DNA from: a bacterium
Lineage (GTDB): Bacteria; Bacillota_I; Bacilli_A; RFN20; CAG-826
DNA length: 64,000 nucleotides
Direction of reading: 5' to 3'
Assembly (NCBI GenBank): GCA_963617535.1
Contig: CAVEPD010000001.1
Span: forward strand, 1,914 to 65,913
This document shows, one piece after another, positions 8,858-63,500 of the stretch. The notes under the pieces were generated by a model. The model saw only the letters and a list, made by a program, of their open reading frames with translations. It ran no database searches and was not told where the DNA came from. The position numbers and the translations under genes are program-made. Within the stretch, counting starts at the first letter, position 1. Each line of letters begins with the position of its first letter.

Positions 8858-8965
8858 TCTTCTTTAGTTGCACTTTTGTTTCGTTGCGCTTTTCTTGCAC
8901 CCTTTTCACGCGCGTGCGCATATATAATCTAGAGGAAAGAGGTATTTTGGCCTTCGAGGAAAAGC

Positions 8966-11764: not shown

Positions 11765-11780
11765 AACCAAAATCTAGCAA

Positions 11781-11806
11781 AGAGGCATCCATGGGGTGCC
11801 TCTTTT
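11781..11806 (+). terminator. Rho-independent terminator after the glycosidase pair
   Basis: AGAGGCATCC-atg-GGGTGCCTCT stem followed by TTTT. Confidence 0.6.
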
Positions 11807-11853
11807 AAGTTCCTCTTTAAGGAGGGAAGACGAAGGACTAAAATTCGGGCCAT

Positions 11854-12678: not shown

Positions 12679-12680
12679 TT

Positions 12681-13685: not shown

Positions 13686-13789
13686 GCAAAAATTTTGCCA
13701 CTTTTCTTTGCTAGGTCAATCAAGAGAAAAACGTTCACTTTCTTTAACTGCTTCCTTTCAGGAAGAACAAGTGTGATAAGATAGCCGCG

Positions 13790-15166: not shown

Positions 15167-15178
15167 AGGAACCCATAT

Positions 15179-18675: not shown

Positions 18676-18680
18676 TCGCT

Positions 18681-19199: not shown

Positions 19200-19295
19200 G
19201 GGGTCATTTTAACGAAAAAAGGGTATATGTGCCTGTTTTTCGTGAAGGGAAATGGGCTACAATAAGTACGATAGCCGTTTTGGCGAGGAGGGTTT

Positions 19296-20843: not shown

Positions 20844-20849
20844 CAAACC

Positions 20850-38248: not shown

Positions 38249-40378
38249 ATGGATAACATGGAACAACCGATTGATTATTCTCGCGATCCCGATGTCTTGA
38301 AGAAATTTGGCAGGGATCTTAATGAAGCCGTCTCTAGCGGCAAAGTCGACCCTGTAATTGGCAGGGACGAAGAAATAAGGAAAGTCATACAAGTCTTGGC
38401 CAGAAAGACCAAGAACAATGTCGTTTTACTAGGTGAGCCTGGCGTGGGCAAAACCGCGATTGTCGAAGGTCTTGCTGAGCGTATCGTAAAGAAGGACGTC
38501 CCGGTCTCGCTTCAAGGAAAAACGATTTACGAGCTTGATATGGGCGCCCTAGTCGCAGGCGCGAAATACCGCGGCGAATTCGAGGAGCGTCTGAAAGCCG
38601 TCCTTAACAAGATAAAGGAAAGCAATCACAAGACAATTCTCTTCATCGATGAGATCCATTTGATCGTCGGCGCAGGCAAAAGTGAGGGCGCGATGGACGC
38701 GGCGAACCTCTTAAAACCTCTTTTGGCTAGAGGCGATATCGACTGCATTGGCGCGACTACCCTTAATGAGTACCGCGAATACATCGAAAAAGACCGCGCT
38801 TTGGAAAGACGTTTCCAAACCGTTATGGTGGGTGAGCCGACCGTTGAAGATACCATCACAATCCTTCGTGGTCTGAAGGAACGCTTCGAGTCTTACCATG
38901 GCGTGCAGATAACCGACGGGGCGCTTATTTCCGCGGCTACTCTCTCGAATCGTTACATCACAAATCGCTTCTTGCCGGATAAAGCAATCGATCTCTTGGA
39001 TGAGGCTTGCGCCTCCATCAAAGTTGAAATCGAATCGATGCCGACTGAACTCGATGAGGTTTCTCGCAAAATCAGAAGCCTTGAGATCGAGAAGGTCGCC
39101 CTGGCTAAGGAAAAAGACGAATCCTCTTTGCGCCGCATGGAGGCCCTTGAGAAAGAACTGGCTGAGGACAAGGAGAAATTCGATTCTTTGAATAAGGAAT
39201 GGCAAAAAGAAAAAGAGGAGGTCAGCGAGGCTAAGAATCTCAAAAAGGAGATTGAAGACGCGAAGCGCAACCTCTCCAACTATTTCGCTCAGGGCGATTA
39301 CAAGAAAGCCTCTGAACTTCAATACAAGACGATTCCTGAACTTCAACAAAGGCTTCATGACGTCTCCGTTGCTAGCAAAGACAAGGAGAGACTCGTCAAC
39401 GAGGTCGTGGATGAAGAGGAAATTGCCAAAATCGTCGGCAGAATGACCGGCATTCCCGTATCCCGAATTAAGAAGGGCGACAGGGAGAAGGTCTTGGACC
39501 TCAAGAAGACACTTCAACAAAGAGTCATTGGTCAAGACGAGGCGATCACGCTTGTCTCTAACGCGATCATCCGTCAAAGAGCGGGCATCAAGAACCCCAA
39601 TCGCCCGATTGGCTCCTTCTTGTTCCTTGGCCCCACAGGCGTAGGCAAAACAGAGGTCTCTAAAGCCCTCGCGGAAGCCTTGTTCGATAACGAGAATTCC
39701 ATTATTCGAATTGATATGTCCGAGTATATGGAGAAATTCTCCGTCTCGCGTCTAGTGGGCGCGCCCCCGGGATATGTGGGATACGAAGAAGGCGGTCAGC
39801 TTACTGAAAAAGTTCGCAGATCCCCGTATTCGATTGTCCTCTTCGATGAAGTCGAAAAGGCGAATCCCGAAGTCTTCAACCTCTTGCTGCAGGTCCTAGA
39901 CGAAGGCCGCTTGACCGATAGCCAGGGTCGCCTCATTGATTTCCGGAACACGGTCATCATTATGACGAGCAACCTCGGCAGCGAATATTTGCTTTCTGGG
40001 CAAAAGGAAAGGGTCGAGGACTTGCTTCACAAGACCTTCAAACCTGAGTTCCTGAACCGCATCGACGAGATCGTCTACTTCAATCCTTTGGACGAAGACG
40101 TTCAAAAGAAGATCGTCAGAAAGATGCTTGTCGAACTCGAGAACCGCTTGAAAGAGCAATATGTCTCGGTGGGCTTTACCCCGAAGGTCGAGGATTATGT
40201 TCTCCATAACGCCTACAGCATGGAGTTCGGAGCACGTCCTTTGAAGAGATTCATCCAGGACAAGATCGAGACCTTCCTTGCGAATAAGATCGTTGATGGG
40301 AGCCTTGGTACGGAGTCCAAATACGTCCTTGATATGGAGGGCGACGAATTGCTTCTAAAGAAAGCAAACGCCGCCTAA
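38249..40378 (+). CDS. clpB: ATP-dependent chaperone ClpB, short form lacking the N-terminal domain
   Basis: 709 aa. It starts directly before NBD1 (...[43 protein letters not shown]). A coiled-coil middle domain and NBD2 (GPTGVGKTE) are both present. Confidence 0.9.
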
Positions 40379-42259: not shown

Positions 42260-42886
42260 TTAGCCGCGTTTATATTTGGCGAGAAGGACCAAAATGATCT
42301 GAATCGGGATGCCTACGACCAAGATGAACCAGACGTTCTCGCTTGGCTCCCTAAAGAATTGGAAATAGAAGCAGAACGCCAAAAGAAGAGTCCATAAGAA
42401 GGAGCTTGCAAGAATCCAAAAAGCGAGGCGGTTATGATAAAACCAACGTACCTCCCACGCGGAGAGGAAACACATGACGGGAATCATCCAGACATAGACT
42501 GACCAAACGCCGACGGGGACGTCTTTTCCCTCGTGAATGAAATAAGAGGAGAAGAAGATCGACATCGCGACCAGTAAAACAAACGTTAGGGTCATTGCGA
42601 GGATAACGGCTTTGTTAGAGGCATTCTCGTCTCGCTTCTTTTCTTCCGCGACATGTTGTTCGATGGCTTCTGGAAGATGTTCCTGCGTCAAATAATCGAT
42701 AGTAACCCCATAGAAATGGGCGATGTCGAGCATGACATCGACCGAAGGCAATGCGTAGCCAAGTTCCCATTTGGAAAGGGATTTATCGCTGTAATTGATC
42801 TGCTGCGCGAGCTCTTGCTGCGTGAGGCCCTTGGCTTTGCGTAGGGCTGAGAGGTTCTTTCCAACCGTTAGGGCGAGGTTTTCCAT
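42260..42886 (-). CDS. Membrane-bound XRE-family HTH transcriptional regulator
   Basis: 208 aa. An N-terminal HTH_3 domain (LRKAKGLTQQELAQQINYSDKSLSKWELG) is followed by about 4 TM helices. Confidence 0.75.
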   Translation of the reverse strand: MENLALTVGKNLSALRKAKGLTQQELAQQINYSDKSLSKWELGYALPSVDVMLDIAHFYGVTIDYLTQEHLPEAIEQHVAEEKKRDENASNKAVILAMTLTFVLLVAMSIFFSSYFIHEGKDVPVGVWSVYVWMIPVMCFLSAWEVRWFYHNRLAFWILASSFLWTLLLAFCFYFQFFREPSENVWFILVVGIPIQIILVLLAKYKRG

Positions 42887-42928: not shown

Positions 42929-45900
42929 TTAACTGATGGGGTAAGTCACGTAAGTGGTGGCGGAAGCGAAGTTGCCGCTAGTCACGTATCCGTTGTCGTA
43001 ATAATTCGAGGCGTAAGCATCGGCCGCTTGGAGGCTGGTCGTGCTGATTTTCTTTTTGTTGGGAGAACGCAAAGTGATTTGACCTTCGGATGAACCGGAA
43101 CCCTTATTCCAAACGGAAACGTATGTTCCCGTAGAGACATTAGCCAAAGATGCGCTGAAAGAAACGGTAATCACGGAAACTAAGCCAACGCTTCCGCTCA
43201 AAGCCGTTAAAGTCTTTTGCTTATCGCTGCCTACATTGACTTCTTTCCCCTCGATTTTGATTTCCAAAGCTGATGTCAAAGAGCTGGATAAAGAGCTAAG
43301 ATCCATTTTTGCGTTCCAAGCGTGGACGCCGCTGCTCTCTGAATGAGAATAGGAAGAAACCATCTCCTCGCCATGCAAGGAAGTTCCTTTGGTTGACTCG
43401 GATGTGCTAATTTTATCCATGATGGTTGAACTCATGCCCATCACATAGCCTAGCATCCAATTCATGATGTTTGCGGTAAAATCGCTGGCTTTGACCTTGG
43501 CCCAGTCTTCCGAGATGGTCTCGCGCGTGATTCCCGCGGTTTGCTTTTGATTAACGCGATGGAAAAAGATAATCCCGTCCGAATCGTCTCCAGACGTGTG
43601 GAAATAGAATTCGACGTAACGAGTCCCGCCGCCAATGGCTCCACCTCCGCCATTAACTGCGACTATCATGGGGACTTCAATAGTCCCTATAGCCTTTACT
43701 TCGGCCCCGTTCAAGGATACCCAAAGCGAGAATGGGACGTCTTTGTCAAATATGGAGACGTCTTTGTCAAATATGGATAGGATCTTCAATGTTGCGGTTC
43801 CGCTTAAGTGGTAAGTGGAGACATTGTTTTCGTCTTCTCCCAAAGTTGCCGATCCGAGAACATACTCGAGTAGCGTTGAAAGTGAGGAGAAATCCGTCAT
43901 TGAATCCCGCTTTGCCTGAAGATCAGAAACCTGCAAATCCGTTTCTAACAAGGCCGTTTGAGGGACTTCTGCGTCGATTTTGAAATAAATCTCTTTGGAT
44001 TCGGTGATCAATTTGAAATCGATGGAAGAAAGGCCGTTCTCGTTGAATTCGATGTTGAGGGGGACGTCTTCCTCGCTGCCTAGGACATCCTTAGAAATAA
44101 CGGCGGCAATCTTATCGCCTGTGCGGGTAACGCTTACGAGTATCTTCTCGCTGAGAAGTGGCGCGAACTGACCTTGGGAGATTTTGGCGACAAGGGTCGT
44201 AGCCAAAGTGTCGGCCGCGGAGGTGAACTTGGTGAAACGAGGATCGTCGGAGCTGAGCAAGGTTGTCGCTAACTCCAAGATATCATTTAAGGAGGAGACG
44301 CTGAACTTGCCATAAAGCGTGTCTGCATCGGGCTCGCTGATGTTTCCGTAATCCAAGTCTTTGTAGCCTTCGGCGTTGCCGTTTTTCAAAGTGTTACTCG
44401 AATCATAAGAGAAAAGCATGTCGCCTGTTTCAGTGCTTGCACCGATCTCTCCGTCTAGTTGCAAGGCGAGGGCGTGCTCATTTAGATAATCCGCTTTGCG
44501 ATCAAGGACGACGGCGTTGGCACACGCCGCCTTTTCTTGCAGATTAAAGGCGAAATTTCCCTCAAGACTGAACCCTTGCTCGGTGATGGTTTTGCCGCTT
44601 AAGGAAGCAAAGCGGGAATCGCTGCTAACTGCGGTTGTGCCACGGTCAAGAACATAGCCTTGCACGCTCGCCTTCATGGAATGATGCTGAAATAGATTCT
44701 CGACTTGGTCGGTTAAGGTGGGCAGATGGTCCATCTCCTGATATTCGTCTTTGTTGAAAGATACGGAGCCTGTGTAATCGCTTATTTTTAACGTGCCTTC
44801 TACTCCGAAACCCCCGATGGAGAAGCCGTCGAAAGTAAGGGAAGCCAAAGCGAAATCGCTGCTGCTCAAACGGAAAATCAGTTTTCCTTCTCCGCCTGCC
44901 TTGCTGAAATCGAAAGTTGCTTCGATCTGGTTCTCTTTGCTTTCCAAGGAAATCAAGGCTTCTAAGAAATGCTCGTAATGCTTTTCGGAAATGTCTTTGC
45001 CGATGAGGCTATTTTTCACGCTTTCAAAGGCGTCGCTGATGGAGCCGATTGAAGAAAATAAGGCGGAGAGGTATTCGTTTTTGATGGATTCATCGCCCAA
45101 TAGATCTGCGAAAGCACTGAAGAAAGCGTCCGCGGTCGTTTTGCTAGTCTTTACTTTTAAGATGCTATTTACGTCGACATAGGCTTCCTTATCAGCTTCC
45201 CCTTGAATGTAATGACCGGCGAGCTTCTTGGTTTGCTTATCGCCTTTGAAGACGGCGCTGATTGAAAGATCGTTGATTTTTTGATTTTGGAAATTGGCTC
45301 CCCCGTTTAGCGAGAAGGTGAGCTTCTCGTCGAATCCCTGGTGACCGATTGTAGTCGCGGTGCTTTCGACCGTGTCTTCGTGATGAGTGAGCAAAAGCCC
45401 CTCTTCCTCGTTTCCGTTCTCCGTGTGGGTGGTGGAAATATCAAAAGAAAGCTTGCCGGCATAGGTCGCGATCCTTTCCCAAAGGTCGATGGAGTTATCT
45501 AAGGGCAGATAAGAAGAAGCATTCTCGGGGGCGCTTATTTGGGCTCCGTTGTAATCAAAGGACGCGGAGAGGCTTAGCTCCATGCCGTTGCTCAATTTGT
45601 TTGACGCCCCTGTGCCTTTCGCGGGGAAGTCAATCTTGGAGAGATAATAGTCCTCATCGCCTTGCAAACCGACGGAATAAACGTTCTCTCCAATTGGTAG
45701 ATTCCAAACAAAATAATGGCTTTCTGCGTCGATTTCGTTTAAATCGTCTAAAGAAGAGGAAATTTTTTCAAAGTCAATCGTAGAGGTGTCATCGAAATCG
45801 GGCTTCACATCATAGCCATAGGAAGAAAGGATCTGGAGAATATCTTCCAAAACCCAGTCAAGCTTTCCGAATTCGTATTGAGTGATACCTCCGGTTACGG

Positions 45901-46426
45901 AGTCACGGCCGTCTTCCTCGCCATACTGGTAAGAGGCAGTGGAAACCTTATAAGCCACGTTATAGGTGGCGCTGTCTGATCCTGGCGCTTCTAAAGCGAA
46001 ATAAAGCTCGTCATCCACGAGCCTTGCGTCAATGGACCTTCCTCCGCTGGCGTTGTAGTTGACCTCGGCCTGCAAGCTTAGGTTCAAGCCATGAAGCGAC
46101 AATTCTTTTAGGTCGAAGGATAAGGAGCCGTTGCTGAACTCGAAGACGTTATTCTCATCCGCCTTCAAAGTCATTTGGTCTAGTTTGAGCGACAAGCCAG
46201 AGGTGAGAGAATTCGTGAGGCTCTCCGCGAGGCGCTTCGCTCCGACGCTTTCGCTTGTGCGGATTTCCTCGGAAGTCCCGTTTTCTTGGTAATTGGCTTT
46301 TGCGACGTTAGGAGAGACGCAGGAAGATAAAGAAAAAGCTAAAGCGCCTAGGGCTAGGCGCTTTAAAGGAGCGAAGGGTTTCCTCCGCTCCCAAAAAGAG
46401 TTGTTCGCTTTTTCTTTTTCGTGCAT
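42929..46426 (-). CDS. Giant (1,165 aa) predicted lipoprotein of unknown function; paralog of the upstream gene
   Basis: Signal peptide plus lipobox (LAFSLSSC). It is collinear with the 1,210-aa neighbour. No known domain is recognised. The start lies 1 nt after the upstream stop. Confidence 0.8.
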   Translation of the reverse strand: MHEKEKANNSFWERRKPFAPLKRLALGALAFSLSSCVSPNVAKANYQENGTSEEIRTSESVGAKRLAESLTNSLTSGLSLKLDQMTLKADENNVFEFSNGSLSFDLKELSLHGLNLSLQAEVNYNASGGRSIDARLVDDELYFALEAPGSDSATYNVAYKVSTASYQYGEEDGRDSVTGGITQYEFGKLDWVLEDILQILSSYGYDVKPDFDDTSTIDFEKISSSLDDLNEIDAESHYFVWNLPIGENVYSVGLQGDEDYYLSKIDFPAKGTGASNKLSNGMELSLSASFDYNGAQISAPENASSYLPLDNSIDLWERIATYAGKLSFDISTTHTENGNEEEGLLLTHHEDTVESTATTIGHQGFDEKLTFSLNGGANFQNQKINDLSISAVFKGDKQTKKLAGHYIQGEADKEAYVDVNSILKVKTSKTTADAFFSAFADLLGDESIKNEYLSALFSSIGSISDAFESVKNSLIGKDISEKHYEHFLEALISLESKENQIEATFDFSKAGGEGKLIFRLSSSDFALASLTFDGFSIGGFGVEGTLKISDYTGSVSFNKDEYQEMDHLPTLTDQVENLFQHHSMKASVQGYVLDRGTTAVSSDSRFASLSGKTITEQGFSLEGNFAFNLQEKAACANAVVLDRKADYLNEHALALQLDGEIGASTETGDMLFSYDSSNTLKNGNAEGYKDLDYGNISEPDADTLYGKFSVSSLNDILELATTLLSSDDPRFTKFTSAADTLATTLVAKISQGQFAPLLSEKILVSVTRTGDKIAAVISKDVLGSEEDVPLNIEFNENGLSSIDFKLITESKEIYFKIDAEVPQTALLETDLQVSDLQAKRDSMTDFSSLSTLLEYVLGSATLGEDENNVSTYHLSGTATLKILSIFDKDVSIFDKDVPFSLWVSLNGAEVKAIGTIEVPMIVAVNGGGGAIGGGTRYVEFYFHTSGDDSDGIIFFHRVNQKQTAGITRETISEDWAKVKASDFTANIMNWMLGYVMGMSSTIMDKISTSESTKGTSLHGEEMVSSYSHSESSGVHAWNAKMDLSSLSSSLTSALEIKIEGKEVNVGSDKQKTLTALSGSVGLVSVITVSFSASLANVSTGTYVSVWNKGSGSSEGQITLRSPNKKKISTTSLQAADAYASNYYDNGYVTSGNFASATTYVTYPIS
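43736..43777. repeat. Perfect in-frame 21-bp tandem duplication inside the 1,165-aa gene
   Basis: GACGTCTTTGTCAAATATGGA occurs twice (43736-43756 and 43757-43777), encoding SIFDKDV-SIFDKDV on the minus strand. Confidence 0.97.
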
Positions 46427-46427
46427 T

Positions 46428-49400
46428 TTAGCAAGTCACGCCAACGTAATAGTTGCCAGGCAAGAAGGAAGAATCGCCATCCTTCTTGTAATGTTTCGTG
46501 TAGTCGTCGCCATAGGAGAAGCTAACCGCGCCTTCATCGTCGTAAGAGACGACGGAGGTGAAGTCGTTCACGGAGACGTTTTCCCAAGTGTTTTGGTAGA
46601 CGCCGGTGGAGACGTTATCTAGAGCCAATTCGACTTCCGCGGAAGCTGGGACGATTTGATGCGAGCCGTCGGGATTGCCAAGGACTAAGCCGAAGCTGAT
46701 ATTGAGCCCGCTTAAGGTCTTCCAAGAGGTCGAGGCGTCGTTAGAAGTAACGTTTTTGCCGGCAAGAGAGACCATGGCGTCGCCAAGCAAGGCTCTTTCA
46801 TCAAGCAAGGAACCCACATCGACGCCAAGCGACCAAGAAGTATTCGCCTCGTCGTATTGGTATTCTTTGAGGAAGTCTTCGGGATGGGGGAAGGCGTTAT
46901 CGAAAAGGCTGCTGCCTTCTTCTTGGCTCGCTTCCGCGACGGTTCCTTCTTCCTCCACGGGAGCGTTATCCTTCCTAAGATAGCTTTCGTTGATGCCGAG
47001 GACGTATTCAAGGAGCCAGCCGAGGCCGTTATAGGAATAGGTTCCGCCTTCGTCGCCCGTCTTCTCAATGAGATCTTTGCCAGTCAGCTGAACCGTGTCT
47101 TTGACTTCGGTCACTTTGCCATAGCTTGAATTGCGGGTGATGTAGAGATCGCCATAGCTCTCGTCCCCTTTCTTATAGGAATAATAGAGGTCCACGGCGC
47201 GCTTGCCCTCGTATTCGTGATCGCGGAAATAGACGGAGCTATCGGGCGCGTTCACTCCCTTGATTAAAGGCATATACGGAATGGAAAGATGGGCTTTGAC
47301 ATAGTCTTTTTCGCTAGCGAGGTTGAGACTTACGCCGATGAGGTCGATCTTCGTTTTGCCGATGTTGAGTGCGACATTGAGCGAGACGTCATAAGTAGAG
47401 GAATCGCCTGAAGCGACCTGACCAAGTTTCGTGGAGCCCGTTGCGTATTCGACGAGGGTCTTCACGGTGTTGAAATCGGTGTAGGCAGAGGTGTCTTCGC
47501 CGTTTAGAGGATTGAGAATCGTTTCGCTGACGTCCTTCGTGGCGTCGATGCCAAGCCCGATGCTCACTTTGCTCATCGCGAAGCCAAGACTCTTGAATCC
47601 GCCATTAGCCTCTTCACTATTCGCTGCGTAAGAAATAGAAACGGTGGGGTTCTCGTCTAAGCCGAACAGAGCGCCATTGAGCACGAACTTGTTCTCGTCT
47701 CCGCCAAGGCTTGCTTTCTCAGCGAGGATTTTCTTTTCAAAGAGTCCGGAATACTTCTTGTTGATGAGATCGCTTGCCAGATCGCCTCCGACGAGGCTGC
47801 CGATAGAGCTAGCAATCTTCTGGAAGGAAGAGGTGTCATCCTCTTCTTCCTCGGGGATGACGCTCTTGACGGTGGAGACGATGTCTTTCATCGAGGAGAT
47901 GGACATTTGCCCAGTGATGGGGCTTGAGGAACGCGGATTGGTTCTTGCTTTGCCCTCGCTGTCTAAGCCCGATTCATTATCGATAGAAGAATCGTTCACG
48001 GAGTCGTATTTGAAAGCGGTCTCGGTGAAATCGGTGCCGTCGCCAGAAAGAGCGAACTTGAAGTGATGGTCTTGCGAATAGTTCTTGGAGACTTGGTTTG
48101 CAGTCAAGGAAACACCGGCCGATTTCTTATCATAAGAGAAACCGAGATTGCCGGAGAAAGAGACCCCAGTGTCTTTGCCTAAGGTGTCCGTCTTTCCGGT
48201 TTTGACGTTGCCTGTTAAGGATAGCGCGGCTTCTTTTGAAGAGGTCACTTCTTCAATCTGGTCTTTGATGCCGGGGAGGTGGGTCAATTCGTCGTAGTCG
48301 CTTGCTTCAACGCTAGGCAACGAATAAGCGTCTAGAGACAAAGTTCCGTCTAGCTGGAAGGCGCTTAGCTTAACGCCATTGAAGGTGATGCCGGTGAGAT
48401 AGGTGTCCACGCCGTTATCTTCATCCGTGTAGGTGCCGTCGATGCTGACGATGACCTCACCATCAATCTTCACGGGGCTTAGATCGAAGGTGATGCTGAG
48501 GTTATTGTCGGTTCCGTCAATGGATTTGATGAAGTCGAAAGCTTTCTCGTAATGCCCTTCGGTGAAACTTTTGATGGTGGGGAAATTGTCGAGAACGGTG
48601 GAAATGAGGTCGGTGACGGCGCTTGCTTCTTCAACGCTTTCTTCGACTTCGCTATTCTCGGAGACCGCGGTGACGGTCTTGGCGAACAAGGCATCGAGAT
48701 TGGTCTTGCTGACTTTGGCCATCAAGAGGTCATCGATGTTGAGATAGGCGTTATCTTCGAGATAGGCCGCGGAGATATTGGCCGAAGCGTTATCCGCGGA
48801 GAAAGAGATATCCGCGAGGAAATTCTGAAGGCCGCCTGAGAAATCGGCGCAGGCGGAAAGATCAAGCGAAGCGGTTTCGATAACATCGGAAGTGACGCTG
48901 TCGCCGTCTTTTTTATAGTGGGTGAGAGCAAGGCCATTCCCTGAATTGATGTCCAAAGAATTCGTGGTCTTAAGGCCGAATTGGGGATTCGCGATGTAAC
49001 GCGCGACTTTGCGGAAAAGCGAAGCGCTGTCCTTGATATCGTGATATTCGGTAAGCTCGCCTGGAATGAAAGAGGTCCAGGAGATTGCTTCGGCACCGGT
49101 TTCGACGGTTGCGCTCGCGCGAATCGTTCCAATCAAGGCATCGCCGTTTTTGATGGAATAGTTAGATTGCTCCGCGCCATCGAAAGTCTTCGCGGGGAAA
49201 TCGATGCCGCTTAGGTAGTAGTCGCTATCGTAAGTGAAACCGATGGAGAGAGTCTCTTCTCCTAAAGGAAGGTTCCAAGTGAAATAAGAATGAGCGGTGT
49301 CTTCCTCCATGTCGTTCAGCGAGCCCAAGATGTCTGACATGGCATTAGAGCCATCTTCGTCGGAAGCGCTTGAAGAAGAACCGGAAGAGGAAGTAAGGCT

Positions 49401-50060
49401 ATTTAAGTCAATCGAGGGGAAGTCGACTTTGATGCCCCCGTTCGATAGGATTTCCAAAACGTCGGAGATAATCCAATCAACGTCGCCGTATTCGTATTGG
49501 AGGATGCCTCCGGTGGTTTCGTCGCGTTCGCCGGTGACTTTAGGCTCGATGGATGCTTTGTATTTGAAATTGTAGGTCTCATTATCCAAGTCGTTGATGG
49601 CGAAATAAATGTCATCGAGGCACTTGGCGAGGCTGAGCTGCCTCTTGTAGCCGTTGTAATCGAGCTTGGCTTTCAACCCAAGACTGATGCCGTGGAGAGA
49701 AATCTCGTCCATCGCGAAGGCGACTTGGGTGCCCTCGCCGTTGATGAGATTTCCCTTTGAGGTGTCGTCTTTATCTTTGCCAGGGAAGTAAGCGTCCAAG
49801 ACATCGAATTTGAGATTTAAACCTGAAGTGGCGCTGTTGGTGAGATTCGAAATGAAACGTTGTTTGCCGGTCAAAGTGACGTCGCCGTCATCGATGTCCT
49901 CGGCGTCGCTGATGTCCTCGTCTTCCGCCATTCCCTTCTTCGGGATGATTAGATAAGTGGTTCCTGCCGTGATGCCGAAGAGGGCAAGAAATAGCCCGGA
50001 GTTGAAGAGAAGGGTCTTTTTCTTCGAGCTTAGATGTTTTTGATTTTTGTTGGTTTTCAT
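46428..50060 (-). CDS. Giant (1,210 aa) N-terminally membrane-anchored protein of unknown function; paralog of the downstream gene
   Basis: It has a basic N-terminus and one TM (LLFNSGLFLALFGITAGTTYLII). An AAAGGA SD is present. It is collinear with the 1,165-aa protein. Confidence 0.8.
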   Translation of the reverse strand: MKTNKNQKHLSSKKKTLLFNSGLFLALFGITAGTTYLIIPKKGMAEDEDISDAEDIDDGDVTLTGKQRFISNLTNSATSGLNLKFDVLDAYFPGKDKDDTSKGNLINGEGTQVAFAMDEISLHGISLGLKAKLDYNGYKRQLSLAKCLDDIYFAINDLDNETYNFKYKASIEPKVTGERDETTGGILQYEYGDVDWIISDVLEILSNGGIKVDFPSIDLNSLTSSSGSSSSASDEDGSNAMSDILGSLNDMEEDTAHSYFTWNLPLGEETLSIGFTYDSDYYLSGIDFPAKTFDGAEQSNYSIKNGDALIGTIRASATVETGAEAISWTSFIPGELTEYHDIKDSASLFRKVARYIANPQFGLKTTNSLDINSGNGLALTHYKKDGDSVTSDVIETASLDLSACADFSGGLQNFLADISFSADNASANISAAYLEDNAYLNIDDLLMAKVSKTNLDALFAKTVTAVSENSEVEESVEEASAVTDLISTVLDNFPTIKSFTEGHYEKAFDFIKSIDGTDNNLSITFDLSPVKIDGEVIVSIDGTYTDEDNGVDTYLTGITFNGVKLSAFQLDGTLSLDAYSLPSVEASDYDELTHLPGIKDQIEEVTSSKEAALSLTGNVKTGKTDTLGKDTGVSFSGNLGFSYDKKSAGVSLTANQVSKNYSQDHHFKFALSGDGTDFTETAFKYDSVNDSSIDNESGLDSEGKARTNPRSSSPITGQMSISSMKDIVSTVKSVIPEEEEDDTSSFQKIASSIGSLVGGDLASDLINKKYSGLFEKKILAEKASLGGDENKFVLNGALFGLDENPTVSISYAANSEEANGGFKSLGFAMSKVSIGLGIDATKDVSETILNPLNGEDTSAYTDFNTVKTLVEYATGSTKLGQVASGDSSTYDVSLNVALNIGKTKIDLIGVSLNLASEKDYVKAHLSIPYMPLIKGVNAPDSSVYFRDHEYEGKRAVDLYYSYKKGDESYGDLYITRNSSYGKVTEVKDTVQLTGKDLIEKTGDEGGTYSYNGLGWLLEYVLGINESYLRKDNAPVEEEGTVAEASQEEGSSLFDNAFPHPEDFLKEYQYDEANTSWSLGVDVGSLLDERALLGDAMVSLAGKNVTSNDASTSWKTLSGLNISFGLVLGNPDGSHQIVPASAEVELALDNVSTGVYQNTWENVSVNDFTSVVSYDDEGAVSFSYGDDYTKHYKKDGDSSFLPGNYYVGVTC

Positions 50061-50078
50061 AATCGTTTCCTTTCAAAT

Positions 50079-51176
50079 TCAATTGGCGTTCAGGCTTCGG
50101 TATACGGATTGGGTTTCGGTCTCTAAGGTTGGGATATCGTAGATTTCCCCATGGTAGAAGTAGGTGGTTAGGTTTCCTTCAATGGTGGTGGATATTCCAA
50201 CTTCTTTTTTTGTCGCTTGGTATTTCTCGTAGGAGGTGTAATCAAGCGGCATCAGGTCTTCGTCTAGGTGGAAGGTCAAATGGCAATATTCGAAGGTCGG
50301 ATAACCAGTGAGGCCGGAGATGTTTTTCATTTGCTTCACGTAGTTCACCACGGACTTCTTCCTTTGAAGTTCGAGGTCAACCGTGTAGCCGTTCTTCTCT
50401 TTGACGATCCGCGAGGCGCCTCTCCCTGATTTAACTTTGCTTTCGTCCATGATTGAGGTCTTCGTGGAGATGACGTAGATCATGGAGTCGCTTACCTTGC
50501 GCCCCATGAGTTCGGCGTAGTCCTCGTTCGTGTAGATTTTTTCTTCATGTGAAGCGTAATCACTGCTTTTGCCCCAATAAGTTTTCGTTGTTTCACCTTC
50601 TTGGTACATCCGGTCGTAGAGGTTCACGAAGGCTGAGGTGGAATTCGATTCCTCAAAGTATTTGTCCCCTCGTTTGATCTGAATGGATTGGATGATCTGA
50701 TTGACGCCCATGGAGTAGGCCGAACCAAGCCCGACTGCCTTTGTGGACTCCAGAGAGGAGAAGAGATCAAGCGATATGTTTACCATCTCACATGGTTTCA
50801 AGGCTTCTTCTAGGGGCGTTCCTGCTTTTTTGGCGGCTTCATATTTCTTTCGCGTCTGGGCGATGTCATCCGTTAAGGCGTTCGCATCGACGTTTGAGTA
50901 ATCGCCTCCTGCGGTGTTGAAGAAACTATTAGCCATGAATCCCGCGACCACCCCTAGAGCAATTGCCGCGGTCCCTATGATTGATGAGGTAATGATGAAT
51001 TTCTTGCTTATCGGAGCCTTTTCCTTCTTTTCGTTGGAATCGGCTTTTAGCTCATCCGAATGAGCATTTTGCTCTTCGGGGGGCGTGTTTGCCTCTTCCT
51101 TTACGTTTTCTTCTTGCACGTTGGGAGACGCCGTTTTTTCCTCGTTTTTCTTTTTTCTAAACTTTTCGAATAGCAT
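50079..51176 (-). CDS. Bitopic membrane protein of unknown function (first gene of the giant-paralog operon)
   Basis: About 365 aa from the ATG at 51176 (MLFEKFRKKKNEEK...). The ORF in the track starts at a TTG at 51281, so the start is uncertain. It has a K/E-rich cytoplasmic head, one TM (IITSSIIGTAAIALGVVAGFMA) and a beta-rich ectodomain of about 270 aa. Confidence 0.7.
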   Translation of the reverse strand: MLFEKFRKKKNEEKTASPNVQEENVKEEANTPPEEQNAHSDELKADSNEKKEKAPISKKFIITSSIIGTAAIALGVVAGFMANSFFNTAGGDYSNVDANALTDDIAQTRKKYEAAKKAGTPLEEALKPCEMVNISLDLFSSLESTKAVGLGSAYSMGVNQIIQSIQIKRGDKYFEESNSTSAFVNLYDRMYQEGETTKTYWGKSSDYASHEEKIYTNEDYAELMGRKVSDSMIYVISTKTSIMDESKVKSGRGASRIVKEKNGYTVDLELQRKKSVVNYVKQMKNISGLTGYPTFEYCHLTFHLDEDLMPLDYTSYEKYQATKKEVGISTTIEGNLTTYFYHGEIYDIPTLETETQSVYRSLNAN

Positions 51177-51508
51177 GGTCGCAAATCTCGACGATGCGAT
51201 TTTACGCAAACCTTTGTCAAAGGCACTCTCGTGTGCGTATCGCGTGCGTAGAAAGGCAATTCTACGATTTGGAGAATCCAAAAAACTTCGTAACTGTCGG
51301 AATTATTTAGACAGAGGCATAAGCATAGGAGAATTCATATATCGTCAATTTATCGAAAAAGATTTAAAAACTGAATTTCGAAAACGCATACACCTCCCTC
51401 TTCTTTTTTGAATGGCTTTTTCGGCTTGCCTTTGACCTAAGATGAATTTCTTGGTTCGCCTTTTGCTATTTCCTTTAATATATACGGGCACCAAGAGAGG
51501 GAATAACC

Positions 51509-52183
51509 ATGTCAGAAATACGCGTCATTAAAGTAAAACAGTCTGTTCTTGCTAACAACGATAGCAGGGCCGAACTGCTTAGGGCCGAGCTTAAGGAAAA
51601 GAAAGTCTTCTTGATTAATGTCATGTCCTCTCCTGGTTCTGGCAAAACCACATTGCTCGTTAATCTTATTAATAAGTTAAAGGATAAGGGATATCGCATC
51701 GGCGTGATGGAGGCGGATATGGATGCGGTGGTGGATGCCGAGACCGTGGGCAAACTCACCGGCGTCAGGACAATCCAACTTCACACCTCAGGCGAATGCC
51801 ACCTTGATGCAAAGATGGTCTCGGAAGGCGTGCAAGCAATCGGCGAAGACGGCCTGGACATTATTTTCCTCGAGAACATCGGGAATCTTGTTTGCCCTGC
51901 GGAATTCGACACGGGCGCGGCCTTGAAACTAATTTTGCTCTCGATCCCTGAGGGAGACGACAAGCCTCTTAAGTATCCTTTGATGTTCAGGGTGGGCGAT
52001 TTCTTCGCCTTTACGAAGATGGACGCTAAAGCCGTGTTCGACTTTGACGTTGATCTTGCAGAAAGCCATATTCTTAAGCTTAACCCCAACGCGAAATTCT
52101 TCCCCGTTTCGGCGAAGAAAGATATTGGCGTAGACGTCTTGGCAAGCGCGATTGACGAGAAGGTAAAAAGCTTCATTTCTTAG
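51509..52183 (+). CDS. hypB: Nickel-incorporation GTPase HypB
   Basis: 224 aa. It has the P-loop SSPGSGKTTLL, the ENIGNLVCPAEFD motif and a TKMD segment (NKxD-like). Confidence 0.9.
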   Translation: MSEIRVIKVKQSVLANNDSRAELLRAELKEKKVFLINVMSSPGSGKTTLLVNLINKLKDKGYRIGVMEADMDAVVDAETVGKLTGVRTIQLHTSGECHLDAKMVSEGVQAIGEDGLDIIFLENIGNLVCPAEFDTGAALKLILLSIPEGDDKPLKYPLMFRVGDFFAFTKMDAKAVFDFDVDLAESHILKLNPNAKFFPVSAKKDIGVDVLASAIDEKVKSFIS

Positions 52184-53490: not shown

Positions 53491-55302
53491 ATGAACCATA
53501 AAATCCGCGCCACGCTTGGACTCCTCGTTCTCTCTTCCGCCATGTTGTCTTGCACTACGATGGCTGATGCGGATGTTTATACGATTGAGTTTTACACGGA
53601 TTATGCAGGCATCGAGTACGCTCCTGGCAAGCTTGATAAGACTAGGGCCAAGAAGGTAGGCGAGGGATATGTGGTGAAGGGGAAAGCTAATCAAACCGCA
53701 AGATTGACCAGCCTTGTAAAAGAAGAGGGCAAAGCGATTGACTATGAGAATAGTCGCCAAGCAGTGGAAGGCCATACTTACACTTGGGATTCCTGGGTGG
53801 GCTATTACGATGAAGAAAGCCTTAAGGCAATGGACTCGGAAGGGAACGTTTCCTTTGAGGAGGGCGCGGAAGATTTAGTCGGAAACCCCATTAGTTTGTC
53901 GGAAATAAAGGGGAATTGCGCAGTTTTTGCTCACTTTTCCGATGTGATTAATACCTATAGCGTCACAATCCAAAACGGCGATACCGAAATTTTTGAAGCA
54001 AGTGAACCGCTTGAATACGGAACGAAATTAGGCGATGCCTTAGCTGCTAAATATGAGTCTAAAGAAGCCGCCATAGAAGCTCTGACTTTAGATTCGTCTG
54101 ATTACAATCTCCCGAAATATTATTATCAAGTTTACACTTTCGCCGGTTACGAAGACGGAGACGGAAATGCCTATACCGTTGATGAACTCTTCAATGTTGT
54201 GATCAAGGACGAATTGAAACTCTCCGCGGTCTTCAATGGCCCAAGCACGGAAACTTACACGGTTTCTTTCTATAAGAATCCAAAGGATTCGAGTGGCAAT
54301 GAGTTGCTTCCCGAGACTGAAAATGAGGAAGTCGCTTATGGCGCGGACGTTAAGAAGGTGCTGCCTGACTACACTTCCGATCATAAGGTTTACGCCTTCA
54401 AAGGCTGGGAAGGCGAATATTCTGAAGATGCCCCAAACGAAATCAAAGGAAAATCCGTTGATTATAAACACATCCTTTACGATTGCGCCTTATATCCAGT
54501 CTTCGAGTCTTCCCCGGAAGAGCTCACCATTACTTTCCGGAACAATGACGGCTCTTTAATCGATGAGAAAACGGCCTTTTATGGATCTTCTTTGGAAGAC
54601 GTTCTTCTCGCGGAGATCGATGCTAGCTTCGTGCCTAGCGATGAGGTCTTCACTGGGCTTTGGAGCGAAGCGCAAAACGATGTGAGCAAAGCCGGGGTAA
54701 TTGATTCTTCCAAAAAAGCGGAGGAGGAACTTACCTTGTATCCTGTCACTGTTCAAAAATCCATAGACGCGACAGGAGCAAAAGGAGATTTGCTTACTTA
54801 CGAATATTCTCTTGATTGGGATGGATATCTTCTGACGAAGTTCTCCCCCTCTTCTTCGCGAAGCGATACGGAACTCAGCGAGGGCGACATGAGTCTTTCC
54901 TCTCTTCCTGGCGCGTTTGATCTCGTGGGGATTAAGAAATTCAACGATGGCACGGATGGGTATTCCTCTTCTCTTACGAAAGCCATCTTCCCTGGCTCTG
55001 TTGAATACGTCGCCTCCAATGCCTTCCGAGGGAACAAGGCTCTTGAGACATTAGAACTCTCCGGCCTTCAGAAAATTGACTCCTTTGCTTTTTCTCAGCT
55101 TTACTCTTTGTCTGGTTTCACCATTCCTTCAAGCCTCGTTTCGATTGGCTCGCGCGCCTTTTATGGCTGCACAAAACTTGGCCAGGCTGGGAATAAGATT
55201 ATCGTGAAGATGAGCGAAGACTATTTTGAAAACAACGTTGAGCATTCCTCCGAATGGAACAAAATCGGAGAAGGGTTGGCAAACGTTGAATATCAGTCCT
55301 GA
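53491..55302 (+). CDS. Surface lipoprotein with InlB-B/Listeria-Bacteroides-type repeats and a C-terminal BspA-type leucine-rich repeat
   Basis: 603 aa with lipobox AMLSC. It has repeats of the type Y.V.F......YAFKGWEGEY and FTGLWSE. The C-terminal part (VEYVASNAFRGNKALETLEL..IDSFAFSQ..SLVSIGSRAFYGCTKL) is an LRR_5-like pattern. Confidence 0.65.
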   Translation: MNHKIRATLGLLVLSSAMLSCTTMADADVYTIEFYTDYAGIEYAPGKLDKTRAKKVGEGYVVKGKANQTARLTSLVKEEGKAIDYENSRQAVEGHTYTWDSWVGYYDEESLKAMDSEGNVSFEEGAEDLVGNPISLSEIKGNCAVFAHFSDVINTYSVTIQNGDTEIFEASEPLEYGTKLGDALAAKYESKEAAIEALTLDSSDYNLPKYYYQVYTFAGYEDGDGNAYTVDELFNVVIKDELKLSAVFNGPSTETYTVSFYKNPKDSSGNELLPETENEEVAYGADVKKVLPDYTSDHKVYAFKGWEGEYSEDAPNEIKGKSVDYKHILYDCALYPVFESSPEELTITFRNNDGSLIDEKTAFYGSSLEDVLLAEIDASFVPSDEVFTGLWSEAQNDVSKAGVIDSSKKAEEELTLYPVTVQKSIDATGAKGDLLTYEYSLDWDGYLLTKFSPSSSRSDTELSEGDMSLSSLPGAFDLVGIKKFNDGTDGYSSSLTKAIFPGSVEYVASNAFRGNKALETLELSGLQKIDSFAFSQLYSLSGFTIPSSLVSIGSRAFYGCTKLGQAGNKIIVKMSEDYFENNVEHSSEWNKIGEGLANVEYQS

Positions 55303-56719: not shown

Positions 56720-57397
56720 ATGGATAACTCTATTTTCGCCACCATCCCGGTGACTGCTTACGTTTTCTTTGGTTTGTCGGTCCTTGCGACGATCGTGGAA
56801 CTTTATTTTGCCTTCGTTGAGAATGAGCTTGGCAGAAAAATCACGAAATGCTTCTGCGTGGGCTTTTTGGTTGCGATGGCCGCATGTTGGAAAAGCGATG
56901 CTTGGCCGATTTATGTTGGCGCCGCTTTAGGGGTACTTGGGGACTTCCTTTTGCTTAAGAAGCACAAGGTCTATCCGATGGTCTTCGGGACCTTTTCCTT
57001 TTTCCTCGGGCATATCTTTTATATTGTAGGATATTGCTTGATATGCTCTTTCCCATGGGAAGTTTATGTGGGTTTTGCGGTGTTTTACATCCTTTTCTGC
57101 TTCTTGGGATATCATGTTATCCACAAGGCCGTCAAAGAGCCCCATATGGCTTTTGGGGCAACCATATATTTCGGGATGCTCGTCTTGGATTTCCTCTTTG
57201 CCGTGGTTGGATGCTTCTTTGGGAAATTCGAGTTCCTCTTCCTCTGCGCTTTGGGCGGGGTGAGCTTCATCGTTTCGGACTGTTTCTTAATCAAAACATC
57301 CTTCATAAGGGACGTCAAAAGAAGAGACTTCTTCATCATGGGCACCTACGTCTTGGCGCAAGCGCTTATCATCATCGGACTTTGCCTTACTTGGTAA
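56720..57397 (+). CDS. YhhN (lysoplasmalogenase-like) family membrane protein
   Basis: 225 aa with about 8 TMs. It contains LGDFLLL and VSFIVSDCFL segments typical of YhhN proteins. Confidence 0.55.
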   Translation: MDNSIFATIPVTAYVFFGLSVLATIVELYFAFVENELGRKITKCFCVGFLVAMAACWKSDAWPIYVGAALGVLGDFLLLKKHKVYPMVFGTFSFFLGHIFYIVGYCLICSFPWEVYVGFAVFYILFCFLGYHVIHKAVKEPHMAFGATIYFGMLVLDFLFAVVGCFFGKFEFLFLCALGGVSFIVSDCFLIKTSFIRDVKRRDFFIMGTYVLAQALIIIGLCLTW

Positions 57398-60404: not shown

Positions 60405-60511
60405 AACGCGGAAAACTATATCACAGGGTGATAAAAAGGGGATTACTCAATAATTTTATGTGCGTACGCGCGCTTGCGCGAAAGCCCTTTCTACCGCATA
60501 ATTTTGACTAT

Positions 60512-63500
60512 ATGGAACCTTTACTCAAACTGGCCTGTCTAATCGACACGCAGAGCATTCTCAAATACGTCAATATCGGTTTGACCGTGCTCCTTATCCT
60601 CGTTCTCGGGGTGCTGGTACTGGTTTTCTTAAGAGGACTTCTAAGAGGCTGGAAATACGGCACCTACCGTTTGATTTTCTTCGCAATCATGGTGACCGTC
60701 GTCTTGGCCACCCTTGGGGCGCAGGCGAATGCCTTAGGAGGGATGGATCTGACGAGATTTAACCTTCCTAGTCTGAATTTCACCCTCACGATCGACGAGG
60801 TGGAGCATGCGATTTCCGTCAAGTGGACGACCTTGCAGGACAGTTTGGAAGATCTCATCATCCAAGTCGCCGAAGCCTTTGGGGCGAATGGCAGCTATTC
60901 CGGGATGCTCTCTTACGCGAGCGTTCTTGCGACCTCGTTCATTAAGCTTCTCTTGATTTTCTTTTGGGGCATTCTTCTTTCCACTCTTGGTTTGCTCCTC
61001 ATCATGTTGCTTTGGCACATCATCTTCAAACGTTTCACTCCGATCGACCGAAGGAAAATCAAGAAGCTTCGTGTGGTTTCCGCCTTTGAAGAACTTCTTA
61101 TCGGCGCGGCTTGCCTAGGCATGCTCCTCTCCCCTTTCACGAGCATCGTGAACTCAATGAATAGCAACTTCAAAGTCGAGGATGAGCAAGCGAAACAAAA
61201 CGAGACCGTCTCGATGATCACCGACATCCTTGGCGTCTATGACCAAAGCGCCTTTGCTAAGACCTTCTTCTCCTGGAATTCGATGGATGGCTCGACCACT
61301 TTCGATCAGCAGCTTATTTCCTTCTTGACCCAAAGCGAGGTCAAGGAAGTCAAAACGGATCTGGTCTCGGAAATCTCCGCGATTGCGAACGTCTCCTCCA
61401 AAGCCATCAATGCGGGACTTCTTTCGGCGCAGGGAAGCGAGGGCATCCGGTGGTATTTGCTTCTTTCTTCTTCCTCAATCCCTGAGCTCATCTATGCCTT
61501 ATCGGAGACGAAGCTCATCCAATGCGCTTTGCCTTTCGCTGTCTCTTTGGCCGTCAATCTCGACGCGGTTAAGAGCGTCCTCGGCGAAGAAACCTGCAAA
61601 TATCTTTCGGATACGGAAGTCGACTGGACGGAAGCCATTCAATCCATGAGCCGCATCTATGAGAATATTCTTGATGCCGGCATCATCGACTGCGTGGTAG
61701 ATGTTGAAAACGGCTCTGCCACTCCAATGTTTGATTGGACTCAGCTTCAGTACGTTTTCTCTGGCAAGGACGCGAACGGGAATGAACGCGATGCGAAGAC
61801 GGCCATGCATAATCTCACCTCGGAATTCGAGGATTCCGCGCTTTTCTCTCACCTTATGGCGGGCTTGCTAAGCCAATTAGGGAAAACCGAGCTAGAAAAG
61901 GAAACACGTGCCGACCTTTCGATTCTTGATTTCTTGCCTCTTGCCGAGGATGGGAAAAGCATCGATTACCAAGCCCTCGTGAATTTAAATTACACGAAGG
62001 AGTTCAATCTCCTTTATGACACGATCTACTCAATTAACGACGTCTCTCCCGAAGTCGTTAGTGGCGTCTTGGATCTCGTGCAGAATCCCCCGACGGAAGA
62101 GGACTCGCAGGATAAATACCGCAGCCTCCTTTCCAAAAGCGCCAAATACGCGGAGAGCTACGTTGAGCTTGTCGTTGGGGAAAGGGACGAGAATGGCGAG
62201 CCGAAAGACGATTCGAAGGATTGCTTATTCGATTCCGTCTTCGTGGGGAACGCCCTTCCTGCTTTGGTGCCTTACATTGAGAAGGCTGGCAGTTCTGCTT
62301 TGGATATGGATTTGAAGCTTACGAACACGAAGGAGGAGCTGAAGGGCTGGGAGTTAAAAGACTACAAGAGGGAATTCGGCGCTACTTTGGATGTCGCCGC
62401 AAAGTTTGCCTCGAGTGATGCCGGGCTCGCCTTCCTAGAAGACGGCACGGGGATGGCTTACAAAGACAAAAAGCTCATCTCCATCGACCCCGAGCTCGTG
62501 AAAGCCCTGCAAAACTCTCTTGAATTGGGCGACAAGTCCAAAATCATGACCGAGGCCTTGCCTCAAGTGGCCGAGAAGTACTTTGAGGACTTCAGGACAA
62601 CCCTTTCCGAATTCGGCATCGAGGACGTTGATTTCAAATGCGAGAATTTTGGATCGGAGCTTTCCTACCTTTTGAATCTCCTCTCCTATTCGGGCGACCT
62701 GATCTTGGCGCTTAATAATATCCAGGGGGCTTCCACGCATCTTATGGCGACGATGCTTCTAGAGGAAAAGGATTCCCTCGTCCGCGTCTTGGACATCTTC
62801 GCCGGCTCGAAGATCCTCAATCCGGTAGATTCGGACAGCGGGAAAACGAACATGAACATCGCTTCCTTACTGAATTACGTTTTCTCTTCCGCGGGTTTAG
62901 AGGATTTCAAGCTGGAAGCCGACGCTCTTGACGGGATGATCCTCGTCAGCGAACGCGTCAATAATGACATCGGAGGGGAAGTCACATCGCCTCATGAGAA
63001 CGCCTTGATCGTCGATGCCATCACCTCGGTCCCTCTTTCGGAGCTCATGGCCTTAGGGGGTGCAAGCAGTAGCGAGATGATGAAGGCTCTTTCGAAGATC
63101 GACGTAGAGACGCTTTTCACGAACATTGGCAAATCCGAGGTCATGCGCTCGGTCGCGGGCAGCGCGATGGACAAATATTTCACCTCCATGCTTGATGTGG
63201 GGGAAGGGGATGGCATCTCTTTCAAGAATCTGGTGACCGCCGAAGAATGGGAAAAGGAAGGGAGAACAATCCAAAAGATCGTGAACCTCGCCACGAACGG
63301 CATCGACATCAGCGATTTCGACATTAATGATGTTTCTCCAAGCCTGGTGAAGGATCTTTTCTCCAACCTGGCAAATAGCCAAATCTTCTTGAAGAAAACA
63401 ACGGGCGCGGATGGAACAGTCATGACAGAGTATATGTTCCCCAAGTTCTTCTCCTCGAAGATCCTCGGGATGCTCGATAAGGACTCTCTTCCGTATTTCT

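Follow-up and report, generated by a model that had tools for sequence, protein, structure and literature searches.

A conserved envelope module of giant surface proteins, a bitopic protein with a predicted LolA-like fold and a membrane-bound XRE regulator in Bacilli related to RFN20/CAG-826

LprG/LppX, mycobacterial lipoproteins that carry glycolipids and triacylglycerides, and LolA/LolB, which carry lipoproteins, are external, membrane-anchored domains that fold as α/β half-barrels of about 11 strands with accompanying helices, and LprG is encoded in an operon devoted to envelope lipid handling. The same general fold is found in RseB/MucB, a periplasmic sensor that binds the anti-sigma factor RseA and lipids and is genetically associated with a membrane-bound transcription regulator, and in GerS, a LolA-fold lipoprotein of the Firmicute C. 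difficile that activates CwlD. In the wall-less bacterium Mycoplasma pneumoniae, P116 is a large surface protein with an N-terminal transmembrane (TM) anchor and hydrophobic cavities, which extracts and delivers lipids without ATP and forms a homodimer with a unique fold of helical "fingers" and a five-strand "palm" (PMC12487902). Here, we analyzed a stretch of 64,000 nucleotides (the window) from a CAG-826 bacterium (assembly GCA_963617535.1, contig CAVEPD010000001.1), in which three minus-strand genes encode a bitopic protein (C) and two giant paralogous proteins (B and A), followed by a gene for an XRE-family regulator with TM helices. Loci of relatives are numbered from L001 onward.

Gene layout and comparison with described systems

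The module, which spans about 9 kb, contains the following features (window coordinates).

50079-51176, minus strand: gene C, 365 aa with an ATG start; bitopic protein with a single TM helix
46428-50060, minus strand: gene B, 1,210-aa giant with an N-terminal TM anchor
42929-46426, minus strand: gene A, 1,165-aa giant, predicted lipoprotein and paralog of B
42260-42886, minus strand: XRE-TM regulator gene, 208 aa, with an HTH_3 domain (residues 1-70) and four TM helices
51177-51281, minus strand: leader/promoter region of C, conserved and non-coding, formerly taken as a TTG-initiated N-terminal extension
51259-51277, no strand: 19-bp inverted repeat ATTCTCCAAATCGTAGAAT, candidate operator, about 85 nt upstream of the C start codon

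The spacers between these genes were found to be 18 nt between C and B, including GAAAGGAAA ahead of the B start codon, 1 nt between B and A, and 42 nt between A and the XRE gene. A sequence-only reading of this DNA had described three tightly packed minus-strand open reading frames (ORFs), and both their coordinates and the gene junctions were reproduced here. That reading had also offered two possible starts for C, 51176 and 51281, of which only the first was retained; the ATG at 51176 is shared by the orthologs, and the TTG at 51281 overlaps a conserved non-coding palindrome. The TTG-initiated version of 400 aa was therefore rejected as an artefact because the conserved upstream DNA blocks end at the shared ATG, and the supposed extension corresponds to the conserved non-coding region with the palindrome.

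A, B and C were all predicted to be external and membrane-anchored, as are the LprG/LppX and LolA/LolB proteins, which gave the best structural matches to the C ectodomain and matched giant A locally. In contrast to LprG and LolA, the module showed no sequence-profile similarity to these proteins, C is anchored by a TM helix rather than being periplasmic or lipidated, and the giants string about four modules into 1,100-1,200 aa as a pair of TM-anchored and lipid-anchored paralogs. Additionally, the host is predicted to lack peptidoglycan and is assumed to have a single membrane, so that no second membrane would be available for delivery, and no LolCDE-type or major facilitator superfamily partner lies adjacent to the module, whose regulator is a membrane XRE protein. 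A Lol pathway works through LolCDE and delivers to an outer membrane; with no ABC transporter in its conserved loci and no outer membrane assumed for its host, the module does not qualify as one. RseB/MucB and GerS resemble the module in fold, and RseB also in its tie to a membrane-bound transcription regulator, but the module lacks a sigma/anti-sigma pair, a site-1 protease and an amidase partner and differs greatly from them in size and modular repetition.

P116 is a conceptual analogue in a wall-less bacterium, although its fold, as described in PMC12487902, differs from that of the module proteins. The AsmA/TamB/YhdP proteins and the LptC-LptA-LptD bridges recall the module in the N-terminal TM anchor of giant B, the long runs of antiparallel strands and the small bitopic partner (compare LptC), whereas the secondary structure modelled for giant A suggests discrete modules interrupted by helices rather than one continuous groove, and the host presumably has no outer membrane. 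By the definition of an AsmA-like protein, only the N-terminal TM anchor of giant B is held in common, and the module is not assigned to that class. By analogy, the module may work like the LprG/LolA-type carriers, and conceptually like P116, without belonging to those families. In the libraries and literature searched, we found no counterpart to tandem modules within proteins of 1,100-1,200 aa, to the pair of TM-anchored and lipid-anchored paralogs, to the bitopic partner or to a membrane-bound XRE regulator paired with a conserved candidate operator.

Conservation of the module, its regulator and the candidate operator

Scanning species-representative genomes gave 31 loci. The closest named relatives were Candidatus Enteromonas/Alloenteromonas (Bacilli, order RFN20, family CAG-826), and further loci were labelled "Bacilli bacterium" or "Erysipelotrichaceae bacterium". 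Candidatus Enteromonas belongs to GTDB order RFN20, family CAG-826, with a genome of about 1.2 Mb in one species (PMC8035907), and CAG-826 is predicted to be peptidoglycan-deficient (PMC10868615). The "Mollicutes-like" lineage surmised from the sequence was thus upheld. We assumed that the host is single-membraned and hence has no outer membrane for delivery or bridging. Four loci (L001, L003, L010 and L004), which were 53-89% identical to the window over the whole module, carried the labels Parasutterella excrementihominis, Paludibacteraceae, Lachnospiraceae or Bacteroidales; these evidently reflect mis-assigned taxonomy of metagenome-assembled genomes (MAGs) of RFN20 type. In particular, the Parasutterella, Paludibacteraceae and Lachnospiraceae labels were considered binning or labelling errors because the loci concerned were 79-89% identical to the window.

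In all 21 close loci that were uncut by contig ends, the genes for C, for one giant of each type and for the XRE-TM protein lay next to one another, usually in the order C-B-A-XRE; L013, L024 and L027 had the XRE gene separating B from A, and L011 had it upstream of C. Both giants were single-copy and syntenic in all related species. We also inspected six distant module loci reached via hidden Markov model (HMM) matches (L032, L035, L036, L037, L038 and L039), and each of the six contained an XRE/HTH_3 gene of about 200 aa, usually divergent beside C, a protein of about 293-358 aa without a Pfam match, and either one giant (L032, L036, L037 and L039) or two (L035 and L038). The small protein of L032 matched the C profile with 100% probability, and the L032 XRE protein was 36% identical to that of the window over its full length, including the TM region. 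The window XRE protein itself matched Pfam HTH_3 over residues 13-66 (E=1.9e-15, 54 of 55 profile positions), which places it in the XRE family, and four TM helices were predicted in it.

The only outlier was L034, which encodes a giant relative of 4,042 aa (8001-20129) with neither an XRE gene nor C beside it. This relative contained 11 stretches that matched the family profile together with eight carbohydrate-binding modules of the CBM5/12 type, and a Lipase_3 gene (20143-21597) followed immediately; this context is consistent with an extracellular role that is possibly lipid-linked. Apart from L034, the XRE gene, C and the giant or giants were linked at every examined locus uncut by a contig end. 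The synteny of the gene set across relatives, which had been put forward as a check, was therefore borne out in the 21 complete close loci. The XRE gene had previously been noted as lying immediately downstream on the same strand; the adjacency held, but its standing as a mere neighbour did not, as no other gene is linked to the module so consistently, and an operator-like palindrome accompanies it. The XRE-TM regulator belongs to the module as a dedicated partner.

Alignment of the DNA upstream of C revealed a series of conserved blocks (the palindrome, TTCTA, GATAC, GAGAG, TTGACA and TAAAAT) that ended at the shared ATG. The palindrome, of 19 bp, had the consensus ATTCTC-N7-GAGAAT and was followed by a TTCTAC half-site. 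A degenerate form of this pattern was matched once in the 64-kb window, where 0.12 matches were expected, and 18 loci had a single match each, in every case a short distance upstream of C; these 18 include the distant loci L032 and L035-L039, whose flanking DNA is unalignable. When up to two mismatches were allowed, the palindrome was present upstream of C in 28 of 32 loci, compared with 62 of 780 random windows. A dyad of such size beside an XRE gene has the classic form of a Cro/CI-type operator, and we infer from the DNA pattern that the palindrome is a candidate operator for the XRE-TM protein. The region upstream of C had no match in Rfam, and an RNA element was rejected on that account.

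Besides the XRE gene, no recurrent functional neighbour was found across the loci. The GTPase, PepF and ClpB genes were considered as functional partners and rejected, as they are conserved only in the close lineage and look like general synteny, and no ABC transporter of the LolCDE type was present within the conserved module loci, a result that covers these loci, as no genome-wide search was made. The GTPase (51509-52183, plus strand), which is of the CobW/HypB/UreG type and divergent from the module, was 67-98% identical and in the same place in most close relatives; its position probably reflects lineage synteny rather than a functional link because it was absent from the distant module loci. 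The ClpB homologue (38249-40378, plus strand) was only 709 aa long, and was 77-97% identical and syntenic downstream of PepF across the lineage. A short ClpB lacking the N-terminal domain occurs in Mollicutes.

Giant paralogs and predicted folds

End-to-end comparison of A and B by BLASTP revealed 28% identity over about 1,200 columns (E=8e-87), and every anchor block that had been aligned by eye in the sequence-only reading, which proposed collinear but diverged paralogs, was recovered in this alignment. Giant B has a single N-terminal TM helix (residues 21-39) followed by a conserved juxtamembrane motif, TTY..P, with the remainder external. In giant A, a basic n-region and a hydrophobic h-region form a signal peptide that ends in the lipobox LSSC (residues 33-36, with Cys36), and from these features it is predicted to be a bacterial lipoprotein. 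A lipobox was present in 25 of 26 A-type relatives and in none of the B-type relatives, and in close relatives the association of the A type with a lipobox and of the B type with a TM helix was essentially exceptionless, so that the two proposed anchoring modes proved to be conserved. Both proteins are acidic (pI 4.3-4.6, with B at 4.3) and rich in Ser, Asp, Gly and Thr. In the distant locus L038, the first giant is TM-anchored with a TTY..P-type juxtamembrane motif and scored with the B model only, and the second has a lipobox and scored with the A model only. The pairing of a TM-anchored protein with a lipoprotein therefore predates the close lineage.

We calculated the ratio of nonsynonymous to synonymous substitution rates (dN/dS) against the closest locus, L001, where dS was about 0.65-0.84 and unsaturated. 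The values were 0.062 for giant A, 0.057 for giant B, 0.122 for C and 0.036 for the XRE gene, with 0.025 for the housekeeping neighbour PepF. No stop codon was found inside any gene across the five loci examined. Both paralogs are under strong purifying selection and neither is decaying, which disposes of the concern that one copy might be a pseudogene in relatives. The earlier proposal of an old duplication with retention of both copies stands, given the intact genes, the dN/dS of about 0.06 and the presence of the same pair of types in L038.

A third giant ORF was observed elsewhere in the window (60407-64000, plus strand). It encodes at least 1,198 aa, is open to the window end and begins with a multi-TM N-terminal region; it matched no Pfam family and showed no similarity to the A/B family profile. 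Because it runs past the end of the window, it is absent from the program-made list of ORFs.

Searches of A and B against Pfam, NCBIfam, PHROGs and PADLOC gave no family match at all, and C matched no Pfam or NCBIfam family above threshold. The sub-threshold Pfam matches of C (DUF5724, ETRAMP and a PknB linker) were rejected, as they lay in the low-complexity head or were inconsistent in extent. When 65 aligned relatives (26 + 39) were scanned at E<=1, still no known family was matched, and at the same threshold LolA, LolB, LppX_LprAFG, MucB_RseB and related Pfam/NCBIfam models were unmatched by C, A, B and these 65 relatives. Sequence searches of the PDB with single sequences and with the family profile gave nothing meaningful for any of the three proteins, and a fold search of BFVD gave only low-probability noise. 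A phage or defence origin was also rejected, since the giants had no PHROGs or PADLOC match, C had one weak match per library (E 0.05 and 6e-4) and the XRE protein matched only generic helix-turn-helix models in both. The description of these proteins as uncharacterised was consistent with these results. A word-indexed search recovered 21 relatives for B, 26 for A and 30 for C, all of them metagenome or MAG proteins with no functional name. The giant-family HMM, searched against 1.84 billion representatives, matched 290 proteins at E<=1e-3 and 173 at E<=1e-30; most of the 290 were 950-1,350 aa long, and the sampled clusters were annotated only as "hypothetical protein [Bacilli bacterium]".

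C was found to consist of a disordered, K/E-rich cytoplasmic head (residues 1-58) that varies in length among orthologs, a TM helix (residues 60-78) and an external α/β domain of about 280 aa; the succession of K/E-rich head, single TM helix and ectodomain had been read from the sequence. The AlphaFold2 model, built from a 26-sequence alignment, had a mean predicted local distance difference test score (pLDDT) of 81, exceeding 90 over residues 90-365, and its external domain comprised four N-terminal helices, 11 strands and two inserted helices. A Foldseek search of the PDB with this model returned LprG (apo, phosphatidylinositol mannoside-bound and triacylglyceride-bound), LolA from several species, LolB, RseB/MucB and the ependymin-like EPD-BCP1, as well as the β-barrels of ApoB, MTP and lipovitellin. 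The top matches were almost all LolA-superfold carriers of lipids or lipoproteins, and the carrier-type matches had probabilities of 0.9-1.0, E of 3e-5 to 1e-3 and target-normalised TM-scores of 0.35-0.51. With a modelled half-barrel of about 11 strands plus helices, C is predicted to have a LolA-like fold. Its invariant residues fall in the motifs YFEESNS, DRMY, MGRK, NYVKQMKNISGL and CHLTF (residues 173-179, 188-190, 225-226 and 279-301). No sequence homology was detected between C and the giants (hhalign probability 1%).

The AlphaFold2 model of giant A, built from a 39-sequence alignment, had a mean pLDDT of 72.8 and a predicted template modelling score (pTM) of 0.48. DSSP assignment revealed a pattern of a helix, about six strands, two to four helices and five strands that was repeated four times, and the resulting count of about 11 strands per module was close to the 11 found in C. 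The modules of giant A were delimited as follows, with window coordinates for the two repeat copies.

Residues 59-305: module 1 (DSSP of the model)
Residues 313-560: module 2 (DSSP of the model); 44747-45490, minus strand, internal repeat copy by hhalign against module 3
Residues 571-830: module 3 (DSSP of the model); 43937-44716, minus strand, second repeat copy by hhalign against module 2
Residues 849-1110: module 4 (DSSP of the model)

Profile-profile comparison of the modules with hhalign, using a 173-sequence alignment, established homology between modules 2 and 3 (probability 98%, E=1.4e-13, 208 collinear columns), and all controls that compared first with second halves were below 1%. 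Modules 1 and 4 had no detectable sequence similarity and showed the secondary-structure pattern only, and a four-fold internal repeat at the sequence level was rejected accordingly.

The Foldseek matches of giant A were local and included P. aeruginosa LolA (2w7q, probability 1.0), RseB (2v42, 0.99), LprG (3mh8, 0.99) and other LolA proteins (0.96-0.98), with target-normalised TM-scores of 0.3-0.44. The model of giant A thus appears to be LolA-like in part. As for a description as four tandem LolA-like modules, the repeat, the periodicity and the local matches were obtained directly, and the fold of each individual module is proposed from the model. LptD, the top-ranked Foldseek entry by E-value, was discarded as not meaningful (probability 0.38, TM-score 0.07-0.10). 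No AsmA/TamB/YhdP-type protein was present among the top 50 Foldseek PDB matches of giant A or was matched by Pfam/NCBIfam, and P116 (PDB 8A9A) gave no PDB sequence match and was likewise absent from these top 50. Of the fold comparisons suggested by the sequence-only reading, the LolA/LppX-like one was productive, as resemblance to LolA, LolB, LprG and RseB was seen for the ectodomain of C and, at least in part, for giant A, and those with AsmA/TamB/YhdP and P116 revealed no similarity by sequence or fold. Its suggestion of a carrier for hydrophobic cargo thereby gained fold-level support from C and part of giant A.

Interpretation and significance

Our preferred reading of the locus is a core-genome envelope module that is carried on the chromosome of uncultured Bacilli related to RFN20/CAG-826 and has four elements: an XRE-TM repressor or activator, a palindromic candidate operator, the LolA/LprG-like protein C and one or two giants. 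On the modelled structures, the giants are best explained as about four tandem α/β modules of about 250 aa each that would share the same general fold. We tentatively propose, with somewhat less than even confidence and with the function taken from fold alone, that the module may be a regulated surface machine that binds or passes lipids or other lipophilic cargo. A surface lipid apparatus appears to be the best explanation because the proteins are external and tethered, the predicted folds are of the carrier type, the host lineage is predicted to be wall-less and nearly all of the regulator lies within the bilayer. In such a machine, the giants would project from the naked membrane and hold hydrophobic cargo, such as fatty acids, glycerolipids, sterols or the cell's own glycolipids or lipoglycans, in half-barrel pockets. 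The membrane-proximal domain of C would hand this cargo between the giants and the bilayer, as LprG or LolA/LolB do with acylated molecules, and the XRE-TM regulator would sense the state of the membrane or cargo inside the bilayer and tune transcription via the palindrome. It is doubtful that the module goes as far as being an as yet undescribed lipid-acquisition or export apparatus, in which a heteromeric tower of B and A would present tandem LolA-like pockets, C would shuttle cargo and the regulator would read the bilayer, as an independently evolved counterpart of P116 or the Lol/Lpt systems in a large gut lineage without cultured members.

Several observations weigh against a lipid-handling role. 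The fold matches were moderate (TM-scores of 0.3-0.5, root mean square deviations of 6-8 Å and E of 1e-5 to 1e-3), and no sequence-level link to any LolA-clan family was found in Pfam/NCBIfam at E<=1. The LolA-like fold also serves other purposes, such as sensing in RseB. Most of the invariant residues of C are polar (FEESNS, DRMY, GRK, H299 and E317); such motifs would be surprising in a non-specific lipid pocket and, judged from the sequence conservation, may accord more readily with specific binding or catalysis than with a greasy pocket. No transporter, acyltransferase or lipase was consistently adjacent to the module. Additionally, lipid auxotrophy is unproven because the window encodes PlsX and an acyl-ACP (acyl carrier protein) thioesterase. 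Finally, C. difficile GerS, which is LolA-like, activates an amidase and has a non-transport role (bioRxiv 10.1101/2025.01.13.632879).

The size, acidity and S/T/D/G-rich composition of the external proteins, their two anchoring modes and the modular tandem architecture of the giants would also suit a surface coat, scaffold or adhesin of a wall-less cell, which could serve in mechanical protection, in attachment to mucus, food particles or cells, or in antigenic shielding, with C as a docking subunit and the half-barrels as a mere building block. The 4,042-aa relative fused to eight CBM5/12 modules and the BspA-type leucine-rich repeat (LRR) lipoprotein nearby in the window, which is typical of surface-interaction repertoires, point the same way. 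Adhesins, however, usually evolve fast and vary in copy number, whereas each giant is present once, keeps its place across related species and has a dN/dS of about 0.06; no adhesin repeat, immunoglobulin-like or LPXTG feature was found in the proteins by the Pfam/NCBIfam scans, and a LolA/LprG-like partner with a membrane-sensing regulator would be unexpected for a simple adhesin, so that we consider this explanation unlikely.

A role in envelope signalling, in which C and the giants would act as RseB- or GerS-like sensors or modulators that bind a ligand or partner protein and control the XRE factor through TM contacts, with the operon as one target, draws on the high rank of RseB/MucB in the fold searches with both C and giant A, on the XRE-TM gene being the most invariant neighbour of the module and on the retention of its TM region at 36% identity across distant lineages. 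The conserved polar motifs of C suggest a specific interface, and GerS shows that a LolA-like lipoprotein of Firmicutes can have a regulatory role. Yet about 2,400 residues of conserved ectodomain exceed the needs of known sensor modules, anti-sigma and protease components are absent, and an XRE gene beside an operon with an operator is most simply a local autoregulator, which would not make sensors of the structural proteins; we therefore judge this role to be decidedly unlikely. An extracellular enzyme or processing complex, in which the half-barrels in C, and perhaps also those in the giants, would catalyse a reaction on a hydrophobic or polymeric substrate, has precedents in 25-phosphosteroid lyase and the AttH/CrtC-type hydratases, and it would accommodate the cluster of invariant residues in C (E175, E176, R189, R226, E269, H299 and E317). 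25-phosphosteroid lyase and AttH were indeed among the fold matches of C (probability 0.75-0.87), but these matches were weaker than those of the carrier proteins, no known catalytic motif or Pfam enzyme match was found, and each giant module has few invariant polar residues, which makes an enzymatic function highly improbable.

Other genes of the window were recorded as side observations. The lipid-related genes are PlsX (12681-13685, minus strand), the acyl-ACP thioesterase (33016-33753, minus strand) and a YhhN-family membrane protein (56720-57397, plus strand). The LRR protein (53491-55302, plus strand) is a predicted lipoprotein of 603 aa with a candidate lipobox, MLSC, and C-terminal BspA-type repeats (LRR_5, E=6e-14), and it is a candidate for another surface-interaction protein. 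An unusual fusion ORF (20850-21824, plus strand) combines Vsr mismatch endonuclease/DUF559 and NUDIX hydrolase domains.

RFN20 and related "Mollicutes-like" Bacilli are common inhabitants of the gut that have never been cultured, and little is known, other than for Mycoplasma, of how wall-less cells build and feed their membranes. The module takes up a substantial share of the genome if this is no larger than the 1.2 Mb of a related species (PMC8035907). The module, its regulator and its candidate operator are conserved across species that are only 25-35% identical, and the module is without annotation in the searched libraries; two protein families merit a definition, that of C and that of the giants, the latter with some 290 representatives at the 50% identity level. 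Even if the module does not handle lipids, the pair of palindrome and membrane XRE protein is a cleanly testable regulatory circuit. If the lipid-handling proposal is true, the module would represent a new architecture for non-vesicular lipid traffic, in which the LolA fold has been multimerised into giant surface proteins, and it would offer a target for cultivation of these bacteria, for example with lipid supplements.

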